A DNA stretch of 30,267 nt from a virus: the UHGV virus genome UHGV-0229465. One strand, written 5' to 3'. Position numbers and translations under genes: made by a program. Shown here in pieces: positions 4,372 through 30,267 of the stretch. Positions within the stretch are counted from its first letter, which is position 1. Each line of letters begins with the position of its first letter. The notes beneath the pieces are model-generated. The model worked only from the letters and a program-made list of their open reading frames with translations, was not told the DNA's origin and did not search any database.

Positions 4372-4652
4372 AGCGGACAGACCGCCCTTATAAGCCGCAG
4401 TCATGATGCTGCCCCGAGTCTCAATGAGAGCCAGATGCAGGTCCAAACTGCAATACGCGCTGGTGAGGGTTAACGAAGAAAAAGGCGTACCGGTACTCCA
4501 GAGCGATCGCCAGTCGCTCACCGGTTAGAGGTGAGGGATTCATGAGATACCCCTGACTACAGACTCAAGGGCATGAGCGCGGCCACTGCGAGAGTGTGGT
4601 TTATAACCGCTAAAAAATTTATACTCCATGGGCATTGAGCATGGAGGGTTGA

Positions 4653-5060
4653 ATGAAACTAAATATCGATTATTTAAAGTCGTTCTTAGCTTTATTTTTA
4701 GAATCTGAAAATCCATTTGTTTCGACAGATGAGTTGGCTAAAGCCGGTTACGATATTTCAGATGCTGTTGGATATTTTCACTACACCCAGCTAATTGAAA
4801 AAGGATTCGTGAGTACCTTGGATCTCAGGACGGGCAACCCAAAAGAGTTGGGATTAGTATTTTCTACAAATAGCATCACAAGCTGGTCTACTAACATCAG
4901 GCTAACTTCAAGCGGATATGATTTTGCATTGTCATTAAGTAAGCCGGATGTTTTTGAAAGATTGAAAGAGTTGAGCAATGAACCCATCGGGGTTTTGAAG
5001 GATGTTGGTGTTGAATTGCTTAAGTCTTATGCCAAGAAGAAGCTTGGTTTATCTGATTAG
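4653..5060 (+). CDS. Hypothetical protein encoded by an AT-rich moron
   Basis: 135-aa ORF with GGAGGG RBS, much lower GC than flanks, own terminator downstream; no family recognised. Confidence 0.6.
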   Translation: MKLNIDYLKSFLALFLESENPFVSTDELAKAGYDISDAVGYFHYTQLIEKGFVSTLDLRTGNPKELGLVFSTNSITSWSTNIRLTSSGYDFALSLSKPDVFERLKELSNEPIGVLKDVGVELLKSYAKKKLGLSD

Positions 5061-5088
5061 TATTACTTTCAAATAAAATGAAGTAGGA

Positions 5089-5119
5089 AGCCACAGGCAT
5101 GTGCCGGTGGCTTTTTTTT
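5089..5119 (+). terminator. Intrinsic terminator after the moron ORF
   Basis: Near-perfect hairpin agccacaggc/gccggtggct followed by TTTTTTTT. Confidence 0.65.
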
Positions 5120-5131
5120 ATTGGAGCAAAT

Positions 5132-14793: not shown

Positions 14794-15149
14794 TGGCCCG
14801 TATCGGGGGAACCTGTTATTTCAAAATTGACGGTCAGCAGCTATCGCTGACCGGCGGCATTGAGGTGCCCATGAACAGGACGGTCAATGATGACATCATC
14901 AGCCTGGACGGTTCAGTGGACCGCAAGGAAACTCACCGTGCGCCTTATGTCAAAGGGACCTTCAAGGTGCCGAAGAATTTTCCGGTGAACAAAATCACCT
15001 CGTCTGATGAGATGACTATCACTGCCGAGCTGGCGAACGGTCAGGTCTATGTACTGTCGTCTGCCTGGCTGCACGGCGAAGCGAACCATAATGCCGAAGA
15101 AGGCACGGTTGATCTTGAGTTCCACGGTGAAGAAGGGGATTACCAGTAA
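14793..15149 (+). CDS. Tail tube protein (Mu gpM-like)
   Basis: 118 aa directly after sheath; GAGGAG RBS. Confidence 0.8.
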   Translation: MARIGGTCYFKIDGQQLSLTGGIEVPMNRTVNDDIISLDGSVDRKETHRAPYVKGTFKVPKNFPVNKITSSDEMTITAELANGQVYVLSSAWLHGEANHNAEEGTVDLEFHGEEGDYQ

Positions 15150-15418
15150 TGAAAGAGCTTGAGTTAAAGAAACCGATTACTGCTCATGGCGAGACACTCT
15201 CCGTACTGGAGTTTGATGAGCCCACCGGGAAGGATGTCCGCGAGCTGGGGTATCCCTACCAGATGAATCAGGATGAGTCAGTCAAACTTCTGGCGCATGT
15301 GGTGTCGAAATACATTGTGCGGCTGGCGAAAGTGCCGCAAAGCTCTGTCGACCAGATGTCTCCGGCAGACCTGAATGCAGCGGCGTGGCTTGTGGCTGGT
15401 TTTTTCCTCCAGGCCTGA
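15149..15418 (+). CDS. Tail assembly chaperone, short (G-like) form
   Basis: 89-aa ORF between tube and tape measure; ends just after slippery T TTT TTC (15400-15406). Confidence 0.7.
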   Translation: MKELELKKPITAHGETLSVLEFDEPTGKDVRELGYPYQMNQDESVKLLAHVVSKYIVRLAKVPQSSVDQMSPADLNAAAWLVAGFFLQA

Positions 15419-15567
15419 CGGCTGAATACCTCACTGATCGCTTCTTTGACTGCGCCAGCTACTGGCGCATTAATCCTTTCGAATTGCTGAATATGCCGAT
15501 CAGTGAAATTCCCTTACTGGTCAGTCAGGCAAACAGGATAGAGCAGGAGAAACGCACACATGGCTGA
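15149..15567 (+). CDS. Tail assembly chaperone, -1 frameshift-extended (GT-like) form
   Basis: -1 frame ORF 15385-15567 has no RBS of its own, overlaps the 3' end of the chaperone and ends overlapping the tape-measure start (ATGGCTGA). Confidence 0.6.
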
Positions 15568-17392: not shown

Positions 17393-17491
17393 TGTACAAA
17401 ATGATTAATGTGTTTTTGTCTGGCATAATTTGGGTTTTCAACTTTAAGTAGTTAATATAATCACTCCTTACAAATGATTGAAGGGATGATT

Positions 17492-17986
17492 ATGCGTATC
17501 TTTGTGTTTTTTATATCTGCACTTTTATCTTTTAACTTGGCAGCGGAAGAGTGTAAGTTCAGCTTTAATGAGTCAGAATTAATCTCTTCTATAGGTATTG
17601 CACCAGTTAAGCAAGAGATAGTAAAGGATGAAGGAATAACTAAGCGTCAATATGAATTCAGGAGAGAATTGTCTTTTGAAGAAATGCTTGGCGATGATGC
17701 TGATGAAAAATATGAGCCGCAGTTTTATATATCTGTTTATAATCCATCATGTCCACAAAAGGTTATTATTTGGTTTTTCAAAGACAATAAAAACACACAA
17801 GCTTTAAGTAATGAGGTCCTTGCTGGTAGAGCATTCAAGTATTTAACTGGTGTTAATGAAAGTATTTTTGAAAATAAAATGAAAAAGTTTTCAAAGGTAC
17901 AGTCATTTGAATCCTTTGATGAAAGGACGGACTCTAAATTTATAAAGAGTGGTAATGTTTATTCCATTGATGTTCAACTCAGATAG
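17492..17986 (+). CDS. Secreted hypothetical protein (signal peptide), AT-rich moron inside the tail cluster
   Basis: AAGGGA RBS 6 nt upstream of ATG at 17492 (track start 17474); signal peptide MRIFVFFISALLSFNLA; very low GC; TATAAT -10 element upstream; T-rich hairpin region downstream. Confidence 0.55.
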   Translation: MRIFVFFISALLSFNLAAEECKFSFNESELISSIGIAPVKQEIVKDEGITKRQYEFRRELSFEEMLGDDADEKYEPQFYISVYNPSCPQKVIIWFFKDNKNTQALSNEVLAGRAFKYLTGVNESIFENKMKKFSKVQSFESFDERTDSKFIKSGNVYSIDVQLR

Positions 17987-18076
17987 TAATTGAAAATATT
18001 AGAACCCCGCTACATCTTCTGCGATGTAAATAACTGACAAAGCAGATTTGGCGGGTTTTTTGTATCCGGAGTTTAT

Positions 18077-19405
18077 ATGACGTGGAAAGACAGGCTTCAG
18101 GATGCGTCATTTCGCGGCGTACCGTTTAAGGTTGAAGAAGAAAGTGCGGGAACCGGTCGCCGTGTGGAAACACACGAATATCCGAACCGCGACAAGCCCT
18201 ATACCGAAGATCTGGGAAAAGTCACTTTCCGCCCGTCCATCACAGCTTATGTGGTGGGAGATGACTGCTTTGACCAGCGCGATCGCCTGATTGACGCGCT
18301 GAATAAACCCGGTCCCGGCACGCTTGTCCACCCGACATATGGTGAGCTGAAAGTCTGTGTTGACGGGGAAGTTCGGGTCAGCACATCGAAGAGTGAAGGG
18401 CGTATTGTCCGCTTTGACCTGAAGTTTGTCGAAGCAGGAGAACTCTCTTACCCCACATCAGGTGCGGCGACGGCGCAGACGCTGATGTCATCCTGTTCTG
18501 CACTGGATGACTGCATCAGTGACAGCTTCAGCGGTTTCAGTATCGATGGTGTGGCGGATTTCGTGCAGAACGACGTTATCGGTAATGCCAGCATAATGCT
18601 GGGGTATGTTTCTGATGCGATGAAAGTGGTGGATTCTGCCGTATCGGATGCCGCCAGGCTGTTGCAGGGGGATATCTCGGTACTTCTGCCGCCGCCATCG
18701 TCAGGCAAAAATTTCGTTGAGCAGGTGCAGAAAATGTGGCGTACCGGGAAACGCCTTTATGGTAACGCCAGCGACCTGGTCACCATGATCAAAACGCTTT
18801 CCGGTGTCAGCCTCGGCAGCGATCTGCAACCGCGCGGCGTCTGGAAAACGGACAGTAAAACCACCGCCACGGCGACGCAGCAGCGTAACGTGGTTGCCAG
18901 CACCCTTCGTACGACCGCAATCAGCGAAGCGGCGTATGCCGTCACCCGATTGCCTGCGCCAACAACTTCCGCGGTGATGCAGAATGCCGCAGTGGGGCAG
19001 GCAACAACACCCGTGCAGAGCACTGGCTGGCCTTCCGTCACGCATCCGGCACTGAACAATGCACCGGCGGTGAAAAACACGGTTGACCTGCCGACGTGGG
19101 AAGAACTGACCGACATTCGCGACACACTGAATACGGCAATTGATAAGGAGTTGTCCCGTACAACCAGCGATGCGCTGTTTCTGGCGCTGCGCCGGGTGAA
19201 AGCAGATCTGAATGCGGATATCAACACGCGCCTTGAACAGTCTGCACGGATCATTCAGCGCACACCGGATGAGGTTTTACCCGCGCTGGTGCTGGCGGCG
19301 ACCTGGTTTGATAACGCGGCGCGTGACGCGGACATTATCCGGCGTAATGCCATTACGCATCCCGGCTTTGTGCCGGTGATCCCTCTGAAGGTGCCAGTGC
19401 AATGA
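18077..19405 (+). CDS. DNA circulation protein (Mu gpN-like)
   Basis: 442 aa; N-terminus MTWKDRLQDASFRGVPFKVEEES... matches the DNA-circulation N-terminal signature. Confidence 0.8.
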   Translation: MTWKDRLQDASFRGVPFKVEEESAGTGRRVETHEYPNRDKPYTEDLGKVTFRPSITAYVVGDDCFDQRDRLIDALNKPGPGTLVHPTYGELKVCVDGEVRVSTSKSEGRIVRFDLKFVEAGELSYPTSGAATAQTLMSSCSALDDCISDSFSGFSIDGVADFVQNDVIGNASIMLGYVSDAMKVVDSAVSDAARLLQGDISVLLPPPSSGKNFVEQVQKMWRTGKRLYGNASDLVTMIKTLSGVSLGSDLQPRGVWKTDSKTTATATQQRNVVASTLRTTAISEAAYAVTRLPAPTTSAVMQNAAVGQATTPVQSTGWPSVTHPALNNAPAVKNTVDLPTWEELTDIRDTLNTAIDKELSRTTSDALFLALRRVKADLNADINTRLEQSARIIQRTPDEVLPALVLAATWFDNAARDADIIRRNAITHPGFVPVIPLKVPVQ

Positions 19406-23077: not shown

Positions 23078-23725
23078 ATGCATCGTATAGACACGAAAAC
23101 CGCGCAGAAGGATAAGTTCGGCGCGGGTAAGAACGGTTTTACCCGTGGTAACCCCCAGACCGGCACGCCAGCCACCGATCTGGATGATGACTACTTTGAC
23201 ATGTTGCAGGAGGAGCTTTGCAGCGTGGTGGAGGCATCCGGTGCCAGCCTGGAGAAGGGGCGGCACGACCAGTTGCTTACCGCGCTTCGTGCGCTGCTGT
23301 TAAGTCGCAAGAATCCGTTTGGCGATATCAAATCGGATGGCACGGTGAAAACAGCTCTCGAAAACCTTGGTTTGGGAGAAGCGGCAAAGAGGAATGTGGG
23401 GACAGGAGAAAATCAGGTACCGGATATGAACAGCTTTGGTAACTCATTGACCGCCAATGGATACCAGAAATTACCTGGGGGGATGATTATTCAATGGGGG
23501 AGTTTTTCTGTCTCACCAACCGGAGGAAGTGTTGGAACAGTTGATATAACATTACCTGTAGCTTTCCCTGCTGCTTGTCGTTCGGTAAACGCTCTTATTT
23601 CAACTAATGATCCTTCTGCCCGTTCTGTGGGCTTTGATATTGGAAGTACCAACAGAACTAAAATCAGATTTACTTACACTTCTGCTACAACAAATTCAAT
23701 TTACTGGATTGCTGTGGGGTATTAA
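23078..23725 (+). CDS. Tail fibre protein: constant N-terminus fused to the currently expressed variable C-terminus (Sv)
   Basis: GGAG RBS; crossover site lies inside the gene at codons ..LENLGLGE..; downstream part is AT-richer than the constant part. Confidence 0.8.
23355..23380. repeat. Invertase crossover site (gix/pix/hix-like), left
   Basis: ctctcgaaaaccttggtttgggagaa is an imperfect 26-bp palindrome resembling the recalled hix/gix consensus; inverted copy at 25213-25238 shares the 14-bp ttggtttgggagaa. Confidence 0.7.
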
Positions 23726-23727
23726 CT

Positions 23728-24159
23728 ATGGAAAAGACATATTATTTTAATCCCTCTGATTCGGGATTTTATATTTCACCAGATAGCCAAACCATTCCTG
23801 AGAACGCTACGAAAATAAACTTTACTATTTATTCTGAGTTCGCAGGAGTTGCATGGCCTGATGGTAAAATACTTGGTTCAGATAAAAATGGTTTTCCAGC
23901 ATGGCAGGATGCGCCACCACTTACCAGCGAAGAATTAATCTCAATCGCTGAATCAAATAAACAGCGATTAGTTAATCAGGCCAACGAATACATGAACAGT
24001 AAACAATGGCCTGGTAAAGCGGCGATTGGTCGTCTGAAAGGTGAGGAACTGGCGCAATATAATTTGTGGCTGGATTATCTGGACGCACTGGAACTGGTCG
24101 ATACTTCCAGTGCGCCAGATATTGAATGGCCTACTCCTCCGGCAGTTCAGGCCAGATGA
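23728..24159 (+). CDS. Tail fibre assembly protein (paired with the expressed fibre tip)
   Basis: 143 aa immediately after the fibre gene; C-terminus ..LWLDYLDALELVDTSSAPDIEWP typical of tail-fibre assembly proteins. Confidence 0.75.
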   Translation: MEKTYYFNPSDSGFYISPDSQTIPENATKINFTIYSEFAGVAWPDGKILGSDKNGFPAWQDAPPLTSEELISIAESNKQRLVNQANEYMNSKQWPGKAAIGRLKGEELAQYNLWLDYLDALELVDTSSAPDIEWPTPPAVQAR

Positions 24160-24733
24160 CATCCGGCGCGGTACTGGTATCTGTTGCCGTCACCGCGTCA
24201 ATGTAATCCAGCACAGTGTTAAGTCGGGTGGTCTCTGCCTGCATCAGCTTCCGCCCGGCCTGCAATTTCAGTTGAATCAGACTAATGGAAGCCATTGCAG
24301 TATCAATCAGTGACTGACGTTGTGCTTCTGCCGCGTCTACTGCGGCGCTATGCTGTGTCTCAGTATCCGTCACCCATTTCTCACCATCCCATTTATCGTA
24401 TGGCGTTAACGGGGCGATAGTGGTTGTTTTTTCGGGGTAATCACCCGGAGTTGTGATTTCTTTGGCGTCTCCCGTTTCGGTGTTATAGACGATTTCACCG
24501 CGATGGTCTGGTACATATTCCCATGAGTTAAAATCTGCAGAGCGGCAGATTGCATAACCAGCTTTGTAGGTGCCTGGAGCATCTAAACAGGAATATGCCG
24601 GAATGCCGACACCAACAGCAAGATATTCAGTTGAAGCTGAAATATACTCCCGACTCATGACGTCAAAGTTATAAACAGTGATTTCTCCTGCCATAGTGGC
24701 AATTAATTCACTGTTTAATTCTGCGTTATTCAT
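24131..24733 (-). CDS. Tail fibre assembly protein, alternative copy (inverted orientation)
   Basis: 200 aa on - strand converging on the + strand copy; C-terminus ..LDYIDAVTATDTSTAPDVIWPELP parallels it. Confidence 0.75.
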   Translation of the reverse strand: MNNAELNSELIATMAGEITVYNFDVMSREYISASTEYLAVGVGIPAYSCLDAPGTYKAGYAICRSADFNSWEYVPDHRGEIVYNTETGDAKEITTPGDYPEKTTTIAPLTPYDKWDGEKWVTDTETQHSAAVDAAEAQRQSLIDTAMASISLIQLKLQAGRKLMQAETTRLNTVLDYIDAVTATDTSTAPDVIWPELPEE

Positions 24734-25266
24734 TATGCAGCCCTCACAATATAGTTAAAAGCGACATTTCGTGGGCGTGTTTCATTCGCACCTGCAGGTT
24801 TAGTCGTTGCCGCAACAACACCACCCTCTGTAATAGCCGGGTTGGGAATTGGGTAATTATCGAAGTCAATGGCTGGAGACAGGGGCGTGATTTGTTTTAA
24901 AATCGTGGTGCCTGTAAAACTTCCCAGAGTCTGGTCGTTAGTTCGTGAAGTCCAGATTCCCCAATAGTGGTTATGACTGACAATCGCACCGTCCTGAAGC
25001 GTTAATAATCCCCTTCCGTTATCCACTCCACGTCCGTCATCCCAGCCACGAATAAACTCACCGCGTAAATCAGGTAATTTATTTGTCGGATAAGCCTTTG
25101 CCAGTTCCGGGTATTCTTCAGCAGAAAAAGCTGCTCCGTTGCATTTCAGCCAGCCTGTTGGCGGAGTGGCTGAAGGCCACGGAACAGGCACACCAACGGG
25201 TAATGCTGAGCCTTCTCCCAAACCAACGTTTATGAAAATGTAGAAATAACGAGCAAATGGCATCAT
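24733..25266 (-). CDS. Alternative tail-fibre variable C-terminal cassette (Sv'), silent in current orientation
   Basis: - strand ORF with receptor-binding-tip motifs (..LPDLRGEFIRGWDDGRGVDNGRG..); its 5' end contains the right crossover site encoding ..INVGLGEG.., in frame with the constant fibre part after inversion. Confidence 0.7.
   Translation of the reverse strand: MMPFARYFYIFINVGLGEGSALPVGVPVPWPSATPPTGWLKCNGAAFSAEEYPELAKAYPTNKLPDLRGEFIRGWDDGRGVDNGRGLLTLQDGAIVSHNHYWGIWTSRTNDQTLGSFTGTTILKQITPLSPAIDFDNYPIPNPAITEGGVVAATTKPAGANETRPRNVAFNYIVRAA
25213..25238. repeat. Invertase crossover site, right
   Basis: ttctcccaaaccaacgtttatgaaaa; reverse complement matches the left site over its right half; 55 bp upstream of the invertase start. 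Confidence 0.7.
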
Positions 25267-25292
25267 TCCTGCTTTTGTCAGGGAGATCTACC

Positions 25293-25631
25293 ATGCTTAT
25301 TGGCTATGTACGTGTGTCAACAAATGACCAGAACACAGATCTACAACGTAATGCGCTGAACTGTGCAGGATGCGAGCTGATTTTTGAAGACAAGATAAGC
25401 GGTACAAAGTCCGAAAGGCCTGGACTGAAAAAACTGCTCAGGACATTATCGGCAGGTGATACGCTGGTGGTCTGGAAACTGGACCGACTGGGGCGCAGTA
25501 TGCGGCATCTTGTCGTGCTGGTGGACGAAGATTTAGAGCATGAGTTAATTAATGGCGGTTTGTCCCACTATTGTGGTTGGTATCCCCATAGAACAGGGCA
25601 AGATATAGTTGTTCATCATGTTCACTCATAA
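25293..25631 (+). pseudogene. Serine DNA invertase (Pin/Gin/Hin/Cin family), truncated: catalytic N-terminus only
   Basis: GGGAG RBS; MLIGYVRVSTNDQNTDLQRNAL...LVVWKLDRLGRSM matches recalled Gin/Pin N-terminus with catalytic Ser; similarity is lost after ~residue 85 and the ORF stops at 112 aa (family ~185-190 aa), where AT-rich DNA begins. Confidence 0.7.
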
Positions 25632-26031
25632 GCAGAACTTCGGTGCTTGGCGTTATATTGAACCTTCTGAGGGATTCTGAGGATGAGTGGAATGTCGCGT
25701 TCTGATTCATCAGTAAGTAGGGAAAGATAGACTTTATGCGTCATTGACGGTGAAAGCGGCTATACATAGAAACTACCGACCAGCATCAGCCTGAAAATAT
25801 AGGCAGATAGAAAAAGTGGTCCGCACTTGCAACTAATGTTAAACCGTTTGTAGATATTGTGCTTCGGGTACAATTCTGTCCTATCGTTGCACTTAGCTAA
25901 CTACTCTATATTTAATGCATTGTAATAAAGATATAAAAGTTGTAGTGTTGAGGGTCCAATTGCACATAAGAGTGCAAATTTGAGTTTGGCCGTAGGCTAA
26001 TGATGAGAGTATAAGTTGGATTGGGTGCACT

Positions 26032-27129
26032 ATGAAGAAAAAAATAGCAGATCTACTAGCCGTTAAAACAAATATATTCGAAGTGTTCATTGTTGCGGTA
26101 TTAATTGCCTTGGGCGTAAATATACTGTCATCAGGCGTTGTTGGTTATTTTAACTTGTCATTTTTGAAAATGATTGTTGTTGGTGCGCTACTAATAATTT
26201 TAGGTGCCACAATCTTTCTGCGTAACGCCTATCCTATGAATAATGGGAAATATGATTTTGAGGGGGTTGTGTGTTTAGACAATGAAAAAAAAGAGTTGAT
26301 ATCAATTGAAGGCTACGATTTTTCCGAAGAGGTTAGCCGTTACCTAAAAGGATTATGCGCGGAAAATAAGGCTATTCATAAATCATGGACTGAGGGGCCA
26401 ATTGGTTATGCTTTTGATTTTAAAGGGAAGGGGATAAATAGCAAAAAAATGAAAGCAAATGCACTATTTATCGAGGCGATTGAGTATTATGTTTTAAGAA
26501 AACTTGCTCTTCATTTAAGTAGCTATTTTAATGATGATGAATCTTTTTCCGATGATTATTTGGTTAAACTAGATAGGAAAAGTATTCCTGATGTTCTTAT
26601 GGGGAATAGATTTATTGATACTTTTTCTAGAGCTATGGATGAACGTGAGCAATTTATGGATTATAGTTCTTTACCATCTATAGGTAAAGTTGTATATGCA
26701 TATGGCAATGGAGGCGCAATTTTTGACCATTTTGAAATAGTTCTTCCCAAAAGTAGTTCGCTCACAAGAGAGAGCGACTCTAGTATAAGTATTGTTACTA
26801 AAAGATTTAAGATTAATTATCGCCCTGTGTTCGAGGGATTCGGGGCTAATCTACCAATGAAATTTGGAAATCTTTATTTGGGTAGAGAGTTTAATTCATT
26901 TTCAACTTATTCAGTAGGTTTGGTAGTTACAGTGGATTTTAATGCCAAGTCTTTATTAACAACTAAGGGATGGGAATATTATTGGTGGCTTGATTCGTTT
27001 TTGGGAGAATTGGAACAATCATTTTCTAAAAAAATGTTTTTATCTAAAATATCTTGGGAGCAAAATGCAGCAATGTTTCTTATGCTTGAAAATAAGAGTA
27101 AAATGCAGCACAAGAGAGAGAATTTTTAG
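26032..27129 (+). CDS. Membrane-anchored hypothetical protein (two N-terminal TM helices, ~300-aa cytoplasmic domain)
   Basis: 365-aa ORF in very AT-rich DNA; promoter-like TTGGCC-18 bp-TATAAG upstream; Lys-rich N-terminus then two hydrophobic helices; no recognisable catalytic motif. Confidence 0.6.
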   Translation: MKKKIADLLAVKTNIFEVFIVAVLIALGVNILSSGVVGYFNLSFLKMIVVGALLIILGATIFLRNAYPMNNGKYDFEGVVCLDNEKKELISIEGYDFSEEVSRYLKGLCAENKAIHKSWTEGPIGYAFDFKGKGINSKKMKANALFIEAIEYYVLRKLALHLSSYFNDDESFSDDYLVKLDRKSIPDVLMGNRFIDTFSRAMDEREQFMDYSSLPSIGKVVYAYGNGGAIFDHFEIVLPKSSSLTRESDSSISIVTKRFKINYRPVFEGFGANLPMKFGNLYLGREFNSFSTYSVGLVVTVDFNAKSLLTTKGWEYYWWLDSFLGELEQSFSKKMFLSKISWEQNAAMFLMLENKSKMQHKRENF

Positions 27130-28074
27130 ACAAATAAAAGCAGTCTAAATATCTACATACAGGAAAATGTTCGCATCTGTCTAATGGTGAACAATAGTGG
27201 CTGTAAAAGCTGTAATTTGGGTTCGCTATGTGCTGCATGCATCGGTTGGGCTCACTGCTTATAACAGACATTAATTTTATGACAGAAAGACATTCATGCT
27301 AGTTGGAATATGCATAAAACTCCCTCTACACTGTGTTTGTATACAGTATTATTTTACTGTGCAAATAAGCAGCATTATTGTTTTCTCTGTTCAAGTAAAA
27401 AGAAATGGATACACTCACAAAGATTTTGATGGTGGCACGATAAGTGTCTTCGTTTTTATGAGAGCAGTTGTTGTGGCTTCATCACTAGTACTTAGCATCA
27501 AGACTGATTTCTTGCTGTTGGTTCAAGTACTTTATCCCATAAAAGCCCACATCTGTGGGCTTTCAAGTCACTAGGGCACCGCGGCTCCTTTGCGTATCTT
27601 TTTTTGTATCCTCACCGTCTGGTCGGTGTCCTGCTTTGGCTGCTAACTTGCTGTTTTTGTTGGAATTATCCTTACGCCACCCAATCATGATTGGTGGAGC
27701 TGGCGGGAGTTGAAACCGCAGGCACGTCGTATGCAAGAACGTGCTGCGGTTGGCTGGTGAACTTCCAATAGTGCGAGTATTGAATGATTTCCAGCTGTTA
27801 TAGATTTTACGTATTTTTTGTATGAGAGGATTTGCATCTCCTCCCACCGATCCTCCATGACTTTACTCCACTGTCTATAGGGCTGCTGTGTGCTAGAAAC
27901 GGACATTTTGGTCAACTGAGGGCATGGAAACTTGTTCAATAAATAACGTATAATCAATTGAAAATAAAATGAAATAATTGTAATATCAAAATTCAAAGCC
28001 CGTAGTGAGTATGATTATCTATTCTTAATTTCAACCTCTTAATTCTAAATAAGTTAGACAAATCGGAATGGCAG

Positions 28075-28716
28075 ATGAAAATTAAGTTAACACCAATCTG
28101 GTTATGGATAAAACAATATCAACATCCCCTTAGAGTATTGGGGGGGATTTTTTTCGGGGCCGCTTTGATAGCAGCTTTTTTTTGGATATCAGGATTTGAT
28201 ATAGAACCTATCGCATTCGCTCTGGGAATGCTTAGTTCATTGTTCTTAGCCAGCCCATCGGTAGCAGAATATTTTTTACCAGAACGTAAACCTGTCAGAG
28301 ATATGACATATGAGGAAATCTTAAATTTCATACCCAAAACTGAACCATCTCAAGATTGGCATGGGATTTCAAGGGAATGGGCTAGCGAACGATTCCTTAA
28401 AGAAGACCCACGTCTTCGTTTTCGAGCCAAGTTCATTGATGAAGGAATTCAATGTGAAAATTTTATAGAAGATTGGGCTAACAATCATCCAGATCCCAGA
28501 GCAACTGGATATTGGTATGAGCTTTATTACGACGGAGCATTCCTAGACAGGTTTTTATTGGTATCTGTGGATGGCGGTAGAGCGGATATTCCTCCACCAA
28601 AATTACAAACTAAAGAAATTAGCTTACTCAATTATCATGTTGCGAAAATACATGACACCTCTGGCACGTTAGATGAGTATATTAAACGATCTGGTTTAAC
28701 TATTGCAAAAACATAA
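28075..28716 (+). CDS. Membrane-anchored hypothetical protein (two TM helices, ~150-aa C-terminal domain)
   Basis: 213-aa ORF, AT-rich; helices at ~20-40 and ~45-63; convergent with the next gene. Confidence 0.55.
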   Translation: MKIKLTPIWLWIKQYQHPLRVLGGIFFGAALIAAFFWISGFDIEPIAFALGMLSSLFLASPSVAEYFLPERKPVRDMTYEEILNFIPKTEPSQDWHGISREWASERFLKEDPRLRFRAKFIDEGIQCENFIEDWANNHPDPRATGYWYELYYDGAFLDRFLLVSVDGGRADIPPPKLQTKEISLLNYHVAKIHDTSGTLDEYIKRSGLTIAKT

Positions 28717-28788
28717 TAAGTAACTATTCATTTTTGTCCTGAGCGGGAGGATTAAAACCTCCGCTCTCCGATTCATCACTACAGAGTA

Positions 28789-29547
28789 TTAACATTCATG
28801 ATGCTTAATTTCCAGATCGGAAATTGCAATCATTCTTATTTCTTTCAATGCACTATCAATTGCTAATCTTATTCTTTGCCCATAATCATCTGGTTCTTCA
28901 TAATCCAGTGGAGACGGTTCTAAGCCAATATTTTCGACTAACTCCTCTAATTTTATAGTTACATCAGTATTCAAAAGAATTGCTTTTGTTATTAATATTT
29001 CAGTTAACGATATCATTGCAATGCTTAATTTTTGTTGTAATTCTTTGTTTTTAGTTTGGACGTCTTTATCATTCATTGAGTTCTCAATATCTGCTTGAGC
29101 CTGCTGAATTTCTTGGTAAAATTGTTTTTCTTGCTCTTCATTAAAATATGGCTGGTAACTGCTTGCAATCCATCCTGGAATCATATGAAGTTCAATTATA
29201 TGAAATTCATTGTCTGCCCATTTTTTAATTGCTAGCAATTGTGCATAGATGAATTCATACATATCATATTTTTTTTGCCAAATTTGTTGAGAGATCCATA
29301 TCTCAGATGTTATTTTTTTCTCTATATCTTTAATAGTAACTGTGTTTATAGATAATTGTTCCCGTAGGGTTTCGAAGTTAGAATTGGTTGCAGAAATTTT
29401 AGCCCATTCTGTAATTATTGAAACTAGGAAACTCATTGCTAGGGCTGCGATAACTACGGCGAGACTTAACCAGATAATTTCTGCTGTCGAGAAATTTGAT
29501 GACTGTAATGCCTTAATAAGATCAAGCAATTGCTTTTCTGTAAGCAC
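28789..29547 (-). CDS. Membrane-anchored hypothetical protein (one TM helix, helical/coiled-coil C-terminal domain)
   Basis: 252-aa ORF on - strand; GTG start with GGGGAG RBS; one hydrophobic helix near residues 22-46 then Glu/Gln/Lys-rich helical region. Confidence 0.55.
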   Translation of the reverse strand: MLTEKQLLDLIKALQSSNFSTAEIIWLSLAVVIAALAMSFLVSIITEWAKISATNSNFETLREQLSINTVTIKDIEKKITSEIWISQQIWQKKYDMYEFIYAQLLAIKKWADNEFHIIELHMIPGWIASSYQPYFNEEQEKQFYQEIQQAQADIENSMNDKDVQTKNKELQQKLSIAMISLTEILITKAILLNTDVTIKLEELVENIGLEPSPLDYEEPDDYGQRIRLAIDSALKEIRMIAISDLEIKHHEC

Positions 29548-29949
29548 AGGTTACTCCCCAAAAAATATTTGTTATGATTCAATTGATTACGCTAGGTTTT
29601 CTATTGTTCAAACAAAAAATAAAACACCACTGTACACCCATCAAAATTATATGGATAGATTCTTTATAGCAAAATTATGATCTGACAACATGATATGGTT
29701 CGAAGATGTTTTTATGGTAGAAAGGTATGCATGTAGGGTATAGGAGGTCGTGAAAGAAAAGAAGACTTCTGTACAGTTTGTCATCACGTTTATCTTCATC
29801 GGCTATGCAAGTCGTAATACAAGGTGGGACAAAACTGAGACACATAAGGCCTCACAATGGCTTGCAAGGCTTTACATGTTTTGATGTGGTGGGACGTGTG
29901 AGCGCAGTGTTGATGGGGTAATTCTTTGAATTAGAAACGGATTCTTATA

Positions 29950-29995
29950 ATTCGTAATGCGAAGGTCGTAGGTTCGACTCCTATTATCGGCACCA
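29950..29995 (+). other. Partial tRNA-Thr(CGU) (anticodon loop to CCA end) = prophage attachment core, attR
   Basis: attcgtaatgcgaaggtcgtaggttcgactcctattatcggcacca matches the recalled 3' portion of enterobacterial tRNA-Thr (T-arm GGTTCGACTCC, acceptor TATCGGCACCA); the 5' half is absent upstream and GC composition changes here. Confidence 0.75.
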
Positions 29996-30121
29996 TTAAA
30001 ATCAAAGAGTTACCCCATATTTAAATACACCACGTTTCCTCCTGTGCCGCATTTGTGCCATTGTAACCTTGGCAATTCATCAAAATACTGTTCTGACATC
30101 AGGCAGTGCAGGTGCAGCTAT

Positions 30122-30265
30122 TTAAACCAATTGCTGCCGCCATTCTTTGACGTAGTCAATCAGGGCGCGGAGCTTTGGTGCAATATTGCGACGCTGTGGG
30201 AAATACAGATAGAAGCCCGGAAATTGTGGAAGAAAGTCATCAAGCAGCGATACAAGCTTACCGCT
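30122..30265 (-). CDS. LysR-type transcriptional regulator, C-terminal fragment (chromosomal flank)
   Basis: - strand ORF open to the window edge, ending ...IAPKLRALIDYVKEWRQQLV*; typical LysR C-terminal character; outside the prophage. Confidence 0.45.
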   Translation of the reverse strand, partial: SGKLVSLLDDFLPQFPGFYLYFPQRRNIAPKLRALIDYVKEWRQQLV

Positions 30266-30267
30266 TT

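Follow-up and report, generated by a model that had tools for sequence, protein, structure and literature searches.

[quoted passage not shown] The shift would occur at the slippery heptamer T_TTT_TTC by the tandem slip of two tRNAs at a site resembling that of phage P2, and two chaperones of 89 and 139 residues would be made from the one gene. The DNA analyzed was a stretch of 30,267 nucleotides (UHGV virus genome UHGV-0229465), the whole of which is referred to here as the window.

Results

The prophage and its tail genes

The DNA in the window is that of a prophage belonging to the SfV group, whose members are serotype-converting myoviruses of Shigella flexneri and E. coli. The 908 bp around the frameshift site are 99.0% identical to the corresponding sequence of phage SfV and 98-99% identical to those of SfI and SfII, and the serotype-converting Shigella phages SfV, SfI, SfII and SfIV also carry the frameshift element. 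The locus was present in 1086 of the 5426 complete E. coli genomes in RefSeq.

The features of the tail region are listed in Table 1. The SfV counterpart of the sheath gene, orf11, is annotated 'similar to Mu GpL'. The sheath stop and the tube start overlap by 1 nt, and the TAA of the tube gene and the ATG of the chaperone gene share one base (TAATG). The chaperone matched PF10109 Phage_TAC_7 with an E value of 1e-16 and a score of 61.1 bits (cut-off 25) over profile positions 2-78 of 79. The title of this family is 'Phage tail assembly chaperone proteins, E, or 41 or 14', which refers to P2 gpE, Mu gp41 and gp14, and the RefSeq product name for the chaperone is 'phage tail assembly protein'. 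The 89-residue protein is the equivalent of P2 gpE and lambda gpG. Its gene sits between the tube and tape-measure genes, as is characteristic of the G/GT class (Xu, Hendrix & Duda 2004), and the interval from the chaperone to the tape-measure gene contains no promoter-like or terminator-like site separating the two. The Shine-Dalgarno sequence of the tape-measure gene is kept across the alignment of relatives as AGGAG, GGGAG or GGGAA, and is AAGAG in a single locus (L012).

Table 1. Features of the tail region, in window positions
Feature	Position	Strand	Evidence and remarks
Tail sheath gene, 498 aa	13297..14793	+	Pfam Phage_sheath_1, Phage_sheath_1C, Phage_sheath_domII
Tail tube gene, 118 aa	14793..15149	+	Pfam Tail_tube PF10618, E=2.7e-32; directly 5' of the chaperone gene
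Zero-frame tail assembly chaperone, 89 aa (short product)	15149..15418	+	PF10109 Phage_TAC_7; phrog_166 'tail protein'
Slippery heptamer T_TTT_TTC	15400..15406	+	X_XXY_YYZ phase; zero-frame codons GGT TTT TTC
-1 extension, 53 codons + TGA, PPGLTAEYLTDRFFDCASYWRINPFELLNMPISEIPLLVSQANRIEQEKRTHG*	15406..15567	+	E'/T-like part
8-bp hairpin UGCGCCAG-CUA-CUGGCGCA	15451..15469	+	Folding; starts 44 nt 3' of the heptamer
AGGAG Shine-Dalgarno of the tape-measure gene	15545..15549	+	Sequence; inside the coding sequence of the extension
Tape-measure protein gene, 610 aa	15560..17392	+	Pfam PhageMin_Tail PF10145, E=1.6e-26; RefSeq 'phage tail tape measure protein'
DNA-circulation protein gene	18077-19405		Tail module, Pfam support

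A 170-residue ORF (17474-17986) with a hydrophobic, signal-peptide-like N-terminus was observed between the tape-measure and DNA-circulation genes. It is AT-rich, with a GC content of 0.31 as compared to about 0.50-0.59 in its flanks, and is followed on its 3' side by a terminator-like hairpin at 18052-18068. Its only match was phrog_8976, 'unknown function', and there was none in Pfam or PADLOC. This ORF looks like an acquired cargo gene ('moron') within the tail operon.

Reading frames at the end of the chaperone gene

The chaperone gene ends in the zero-frame codons GCT GGT TTT TTC CTC CAG GCC TGA (...LVAGFFLQA*). Because the codons around the T run are GCT GGT TTT TTC CTC, the sequence T_TTT_TTC has the X_XXY_YYZ phase that a -1 tandem slip requires, and it is the sole in-phase heptamer in the chaperone gene. 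The zero-frame stop follows 9 nt after the heptamer. From position 15406 (CCT CCA GGC...) the -1 frame is open for 53 codons and is then closed by a TGA at 15565-15567, such that the end of the extension and the tape-measure start (ATG 15560) overlap (ATGGCTGA). The predicted long product, join(15149..15406,15406..15567), has 86 + 53 = 139 residues, and the tryptic peptide spanning the junction of the predicted fusion is VPQSSVDQMSPADLNAAAWLVAGFFPPGLTAEYLTDR. A sequence-only reading of the window had proposed that the chaperone ORF ends just past the heptamer, that the -1 frame is open from the heptamer to 15567 and terminates over the tape-measure ATG, and that a fusion of ~139 residues is made; the phase, the positions and the predicted length found here are in full agreement. 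Past the chaperone stop, the +1 frame is closed after 7 nt and the -1 frame after 149 nt.

The sequence TTTTTTY was observed 32 times in the window, where 17 +/- 6 occurrences are expected, and there are 16 in-phase X_XXY_YYZ heptamers across the 22 kb of + strand ORFs. A long open -1 frame follows only the heptamer at 15400-15406 (53 codons as compared to 1-21 for the other 15), and only this one stands at the end of a gene between the tube and the tape measure. A lone heptamer is weak evidence, therefore, support was drawn from the comparison with related loci.

Conservation of the slip site

Relatives were collected from GTDB and IMG/VR. The GTDB set consisted of 23 loci on contigs representing one genome per species, with chaperone identities from 99% down to 40%; its members include Shigella, Edwardsiella, Buttiauxella, Citrobacter, Kosakonia, Pantoea, Erwinia and the betaproteobacterium Derxia, and 20 of the loci were analyzed. 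The viral set consisted of 160 IMG/VR contigs from two scans, with 43 distinct sequences in the second set.

An in-phase TTTTTT[C/T] was found at the homologous Gly-Phe-Phe codons in 20 of the 20 GTDB loci, and the arrangement of slip site and -1 extension was likewise present in the 43 distinct sequences of the second IMG/VR set. When the slip site was located by the protein motif alone, GGTTTTTT[C/T] was found in 103 of 103 related loci at chaperone identities down to 40%. The slip codons were GGT TTT TTC in 62 of these loci and GGT TTT TTT in 41, with no exception, and the T run was 6-7 nucleotides long in all of them and never longer. The codon on the 5' side of the slip site and the codons on its 3' side vary freely at synonymous positions, and the two other conserved glycine codons of the chaperone gene are mixtures of GGC, GGT, GGG and GGA. 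That GGT TTT TT[C/T] is fixed while the other glycine codons mix indicates that the constraint acts on the nucleotides and not on the amino acids alone. The check suggested by the sequence-only reading, conservation of the heptamer and of the -1 frame in relatives, thus turned out in its favor, since the length and motif of the extension are kept as well (see below).

Among 80 near-identical IMG/VR loci, GGG replaces GGT in four (L033, L094, L100 and L063). These variants read GGG TTT TTC, or, in L063, GGG TTT TTT CTC (homologous to window positions 15398-15409), so that the first T of the heptamer is lost while both reading frames are intact. The four copies indicate either some tolerance for a change in the first heptamer base or that the prophages in question are decaying. 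In locus L061, the extension is broken after 'ELLN' and joined to unrelated sequence.

Comparison with P2, lambda and Mu

The closest known system is P2 E/E+E' (GGTTTTTTG), the slip site of which matches by position and, distantly, by sequence. The annotation of P2 places the -1 shift that yields E+E' at GGT TTT TTG, within the FETUD tail operon. Both the P2 and the SfV-type chaperones belong to PF10109, both are encoded between the tube (FII in P2) and the tape measure (T), and the product sizes are 91 and 142 residues in P2 and 89 and 139 residues in the SfV type. The two slip sites occupy the same Gly-Phe codons and have a common GGTTTTTT core. Furthermore, both extensions lie in the -1 frame and overlap the tape-measure start. 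When the alignment of the fusion was compared with P2 E+E' by hhalign, the two were collinear over 118 columns across the junction, with an E value of 8.4e-5 and a probability of 60%.

The two systems are not identical, however. The last base of the heptamer is G in P2 and C (or T) in the SfV type, the pairwise identity of the chaperones is about 21% (BLASTP E=0.42), and the SfV-type tail genes (sheath, Mu Gp48-like baseplate, DNA circulation protein) are Mu-like, unlike those of P2. The extensions also differ. While P2 E', used as a control, matched PF06528 (Phage_P2_GpE) at E=2.1e-22, five clade peptides of the SfV-type extension gave no match to this model even at E<=10. No Pfam model matched the extension, also at E<=10, and a sequence-profile search of solved structures returned nothing below E=0.1. 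PHROGs lists the extension as phrog_32181, a family of 63 positions of 'unknown function'.

The arrangement had been described from the window as the conserved G/GT type. The gene order, the protein family, the phase and the overlap are consistent with that description, but the closest homologue is P2 E/E+E' and not lambda. In both lambda G/GT and the SfV type the chaperone gene lies just 5' of the tape-measure gene with the -1 shift placed near its 3' end, and in lambda two products with a common N-terminus are made in a fixed ratio (PMC5009743). Lambda differs from the SfV type in having a non-contractile tail, the heptamer G_GGA_AAG and other protein families, and no sequence similarity was detected between lambda G/GT and the SfV-type proteins. 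Lambda G/GT is a functional analogue and not a demonstrated homologue.

The nearest lineage is that of the Mu tail module. The sheath, tube and baseplate genes of SfV are annotated as Mu-like, and Mu gp41 (Mup41) is named as a member of PF10109, to which the SfV-type chaperone also belongs. A -2 frameshift has been reported for Mu gp41 (PMC2628397; PMC5009743). With respect to the chaperone, the Mu extension occupies the +1 frame and the SfV-type extension the -1 frame; moreover, Mu has no T run and a gp41 of 144 residues, while the SfV type has a T run and a chaperone of 89 residues. The P-E-x-x-L...P-L-S pattern of the Mu extension resembles that of the SfV type, although not significantly. 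Homology of the fusion to the Mu gp41 fusion was considered and rejected, as the hhalign comparison (E=0.029, probability 1.7%) was not significant. The presence of a P2-type -1 T-run site in a Mu-like contractile-tail module indicates that the mode of recoding is not fixed within a tail lineage.

A separate observation concerns Mu itself (L111, NC_000929; locus 4553-5131), where an E'/T-like peptide, …AIGVILKSGPEWALSLPLSRFFRHCQQAKTL…, can be read in the +1 frame beyond gp41. The RefSeq record NC_000929 carries no annotation of this peptide.

Search for a stimulator and the nature of the shift

Heptamers of the form H_HHU_UUY are among the most shift-prone in E. coli (PMC4066793). The bare U_UUU_UUC gave 0.12% frameshifting in an E. 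coli reporter, which is about background, and 7.6% with a strong stimulator, the IS3 pseudoknot (PMC4066793, Table S3). Neither element of a dnaX, IS3 or IS911-type site was found at the SfV-type site, namely an SD-like sequence 6-17 nt 5' of the heptamer and a stable hairpin or pseudoknot 5-9 nt 3' of it. An upstream SD-like stimulator was rejected, as the positions 6-17 nt 5' of the heptamer vary synonymously and hold no conserved SD-like sequence. The 60 nt on the 3' side of the heptamer fold no better than shuffled sequences in the window (z = 0.15), the 60-nt downstream folds of five relatives gave z values from -1.9 to +0.4, and the covariation term of RNAalifold was close to zero (-0.08). 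The fold of the 100 nt downstream had a z value of -3.75, which came from a long-range helix, 15431-15439/15498-15506. This helix was rejected as a stimulator: it was 67% paired in 17 relatives and the departures were mostly breaks. A downstream structure is likewise not reported for P2 (PMC3091744).

Two RNA elements near the site are conserved. The hairpin at 15451-15469 was paired in 92% of the cells of the alignment of 17 relatives; it hardly varies and has a single compensatory change. Its paired wobble positions (TGC, GCC, TAC, CGC) are kept and the wobble position in the loop varies. The hairpin overlaps the conserved CA[SR]YWR codons and is too distant for a classical stimulator. It is doubtful that it takes part in the frameshift, and its conservation may simply reflect the CA[SR]YWR codons. 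Additionally, RNAalifold paired the UUCCU at 15404-15408, where the slip site ends, with the tape-measure AGGAG that lies 140 nt further 3'. Nearly all of the 17 relatives retain this pairing, two of the five pairs having a single mismatch each. However, it comprises only 5 bp, both sides of which are constrained for other reasons, and is probably coincidental. If UUCCU/AGGAG did act as a stimulator, frameshifting would be tied to the translation of the tape-measure gene.

Since the bare U_UUU_UUC shifts at only ~0.1% and nothing canonical lies at the usual distance, a variant of the proposal was considered in which a stimulator of an unrecognized kind, with the hairpin and the UUCCU/AGGAG pairing as candidates, acts on the heptamer and the extension constitutes a distinct E'/T-like family. 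This combination is unlikely. If the extension were such a domain family, it would be one that is missing from Pfam and listed as 'unknown' in PHROGs.

The same fusion would be obtained by transcriptional slippage, in which RNA polymerase adds one U on the T6 run and GGU UUU UUU CCU... is translated normally. The insertion of one U leads to an identical G-F-F-P-P fusion, so that the sequence and mass spectrometry cannot separate the mechanisms. The site is a homopolymer of 6 T, and 7 T in many relatives, and the invariant wobble T of GGT, by lengthening the run, suits transcriptional slippage equally well. The poor performance of the bare heptamer as a ribosomal shifter (0.12%, PMC4066793 Table S3), the failure to find a ribosomal stimulator and the report that UUUUUUU runs can give rise to indels in mRNA (PMC4066793) all point in the same direction. 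However, the run is 6-7 T in all 103 loci and never longer, and in every case it is phased such that tandem tRNA re-pairing is possible. In bacteria, transcriptional slippage that is both programmed and efficient generally involves runs of about 8-9 or more. Furthermore, the homologous P2 site is said to have been characterized as translational by Christie et al. in 2002 (cited in PMC3091744). In view of the short run (6-7 T) and of the description of the P2 site as translational, transcriptional slippage was judged to be decidedly improbable, and a slip of the ribosome is the preferred explanation of the -1 shift.

Selection on the extension and its initiation

The -1 extension is 49-59 residues long in the 20 GTDB loci and the 43 viral sequences wherever the contig is long enough; in the GTDB loci it has 50-59 residues and ends at or just 5' of the tape-measure start. 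The relatives have in common the motif YFDCAxYWRINPxELL...QANRI. In nine close relatives that could be compared free of gaps, pN/pS was 0.15 in the -1 frame as compared to 1.47 and 1.59 in the other two frames, which also contain 2-6 stops. The variable columns were distributed 18/10/38 over positions 1/2/3 of the -1-frame codons. The pN/pS value of 0.15 indicates that the 146 nt separating the end of the chaperone ORF from the tape-measure start are translated in the -1 frame and are under purifying selection.

These values bear on the notion that there is no recoding at all, in other words, that the -1 frame is open by chance, that the T run is equally fortuitous and that the 89-residue protein alone is made. 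In-phase heptamers are indeed common (16 in the window), TTTTTTY is not rare, and an open stretch of 53 codons is unremarkable in isolation. However, an untranslated spacer would not give a pN/pS of 0.15 in one frame only, and an incidental T run would not hold synonymous positions invariant. Moreover, the peptide motif persists in different bacterial classes and at chaperone identities as low as 40%. The comparative sequence data thus already contradict the absence of recoding, which is very improbable.

In most of the related loci the -1 frame opens only 21-54 nt 5' of the slip site. From the upstream stop in this frame to 15 codons into the extension, 12 of the 21 loci have no ATG, GTG or TTG, and the start-like codons that are present elsewhere overlap a conserved Trp codon and lack an SD sequence. 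In the window, the -1 frame contains a GTG at 15385, also devoid of a Shine-Dalgarno sequence, which is replaced by CTG, TTG or ATG in relatives. The assertion that the -1 frame lacks its own start signals is therefore not literally true, since 15385-15567 is a mechanical ORF that begins with this GTG; its substance, the lack of a usable start, is borne out by the relatives. With 12 of 21 loci lacking a start codon and the rest lacking an SD sequence, the extension can be reached from the chaperone frame only. A separate small gene, encoding a 60-residue protein initiated at GTG 15385, accords with an ORF listing that gives a GTG-started ORF at exactly these positions, with the annotation of the -1 ORF as 'hypothetical protein' in ON470584 and with the existence of the PHROGs family phrog_32181, but is scarcely credible given the poorly kept GTG and the purifying selection on an extension that in 12 loci has no start codon to serve it.

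Across the relatives, the stretch over which both the chaperone frame and the -1 frame are open is reduced to about 33 nt surrounding the T run. This stretch, in which the shift from the chaperone frame would take place, holds no slippery motif other than the T run.

Other regions of the window

A 20-nt inverted repeat, AAACCTTGGTTTGGGAGAAG, was found at 23362-23381 and 25212-25231, the two copies being 95% complementary. We take its core to resemble the hix/gix sites that are bound by the Hin/Gin invertases. The repeat (ORFs 23078-25266) brackets the C-terminus of a tail fibre and a tail-fibre assembly gene on the + strand, and also a second assembly gene and a Collar-domain fibre end on the - strand. 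The adjoining ORF, 25257-25631, encodes a serine-recombinase N-terminal domain of 124 residues that appears to be truncated. The region looks like an invertible host-range switch of the Mu G-segment kind, and its invertase may be defective.

The end of the window, 25800-30267, is AT-rich, with a GC content of 0.31-0.39 and many T runs. The ORFs 26032-27129, 27296-27574, 28075-28716 and 28789-29547 (- strand) had no Pfam match, and the only match of the ORFs in this region in PADLOC was a marginal one (PDC-S50, E=6e-4). This segment may be the end at which the prophage carries accessory or lysogenic-conversion genes, or may be island DNA that flanks it.

Discussion

In the mechanism proposed for the SfV-type site, the majority of ribosomes would translate 15149-15418 and release the 89-residue chaperone. 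In a minority, the tRNA-Phe on UUU in the P site and the tRNA-Phe on UUC in the A site would slip back by one base on U_UUU_UUC, after which both would re-pair with UUU. The shifted ribosomes would then read CCU CCA GGC... as far as the UGA at 15565-15567, and the resulting 139-residue protein would have the same first 86 residues followed by a C-terminal domain of 53 residues.

The roles of the two proteins can be proposed by analogy with lambda G/GT, the mechanism of which has been described, with a product ratio of roughly 30:1 (PMC5009743). The shared N-terminal part would coat the tape-measure protein that is encoded just downstream, and the extra C-terminal domain of the long form would recruit tube subunits. 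The rate of slipping would set the ratio of the two forms, neither of which would be present in the virion.

A search of a set of 5.8 billion proteins found no genuine equal of the fusion. There were only three matches, of 137-139 residues, and these were rejected as examples of it: the frame switches at differing places and each comes from a single noisy assembly ridden with indels.

It had also been claimed that the fusion is missed by standard ORF calling, and no public record examined annotates it. The annotation is absent in SfV, SfIV, Pantoea phage AH07, Salmonella phage F1055 and a RefSeq E. coli chromosome. In the full-text literature no SfV-specific description was found; an earlier mention is possible (Xu et al. 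2004, SfV genome paper). The list of 28 phages of Xu et al. 2004, as reused in the PRFect supplement, contains no SfV name or accessions. Sharma et al. 2014 surveyed heptamers across E. coli; of the five prophage clusters in their list, none has U_UUU_UUC, and the two that are labeled tail chaperone/tail protein (ECs1801, gpG) have other heptamers.

A -1 frameshift in a tail chaperone gene is a textbook kind of feature, and the value of the present example lies mainly in annotation. The understanding of frameshifting or of tail assembly is unchanged by the SfV-type site. Entering the long product as join(15149..15406,15406..15567) would add a likely essential tail protein to the annotations.
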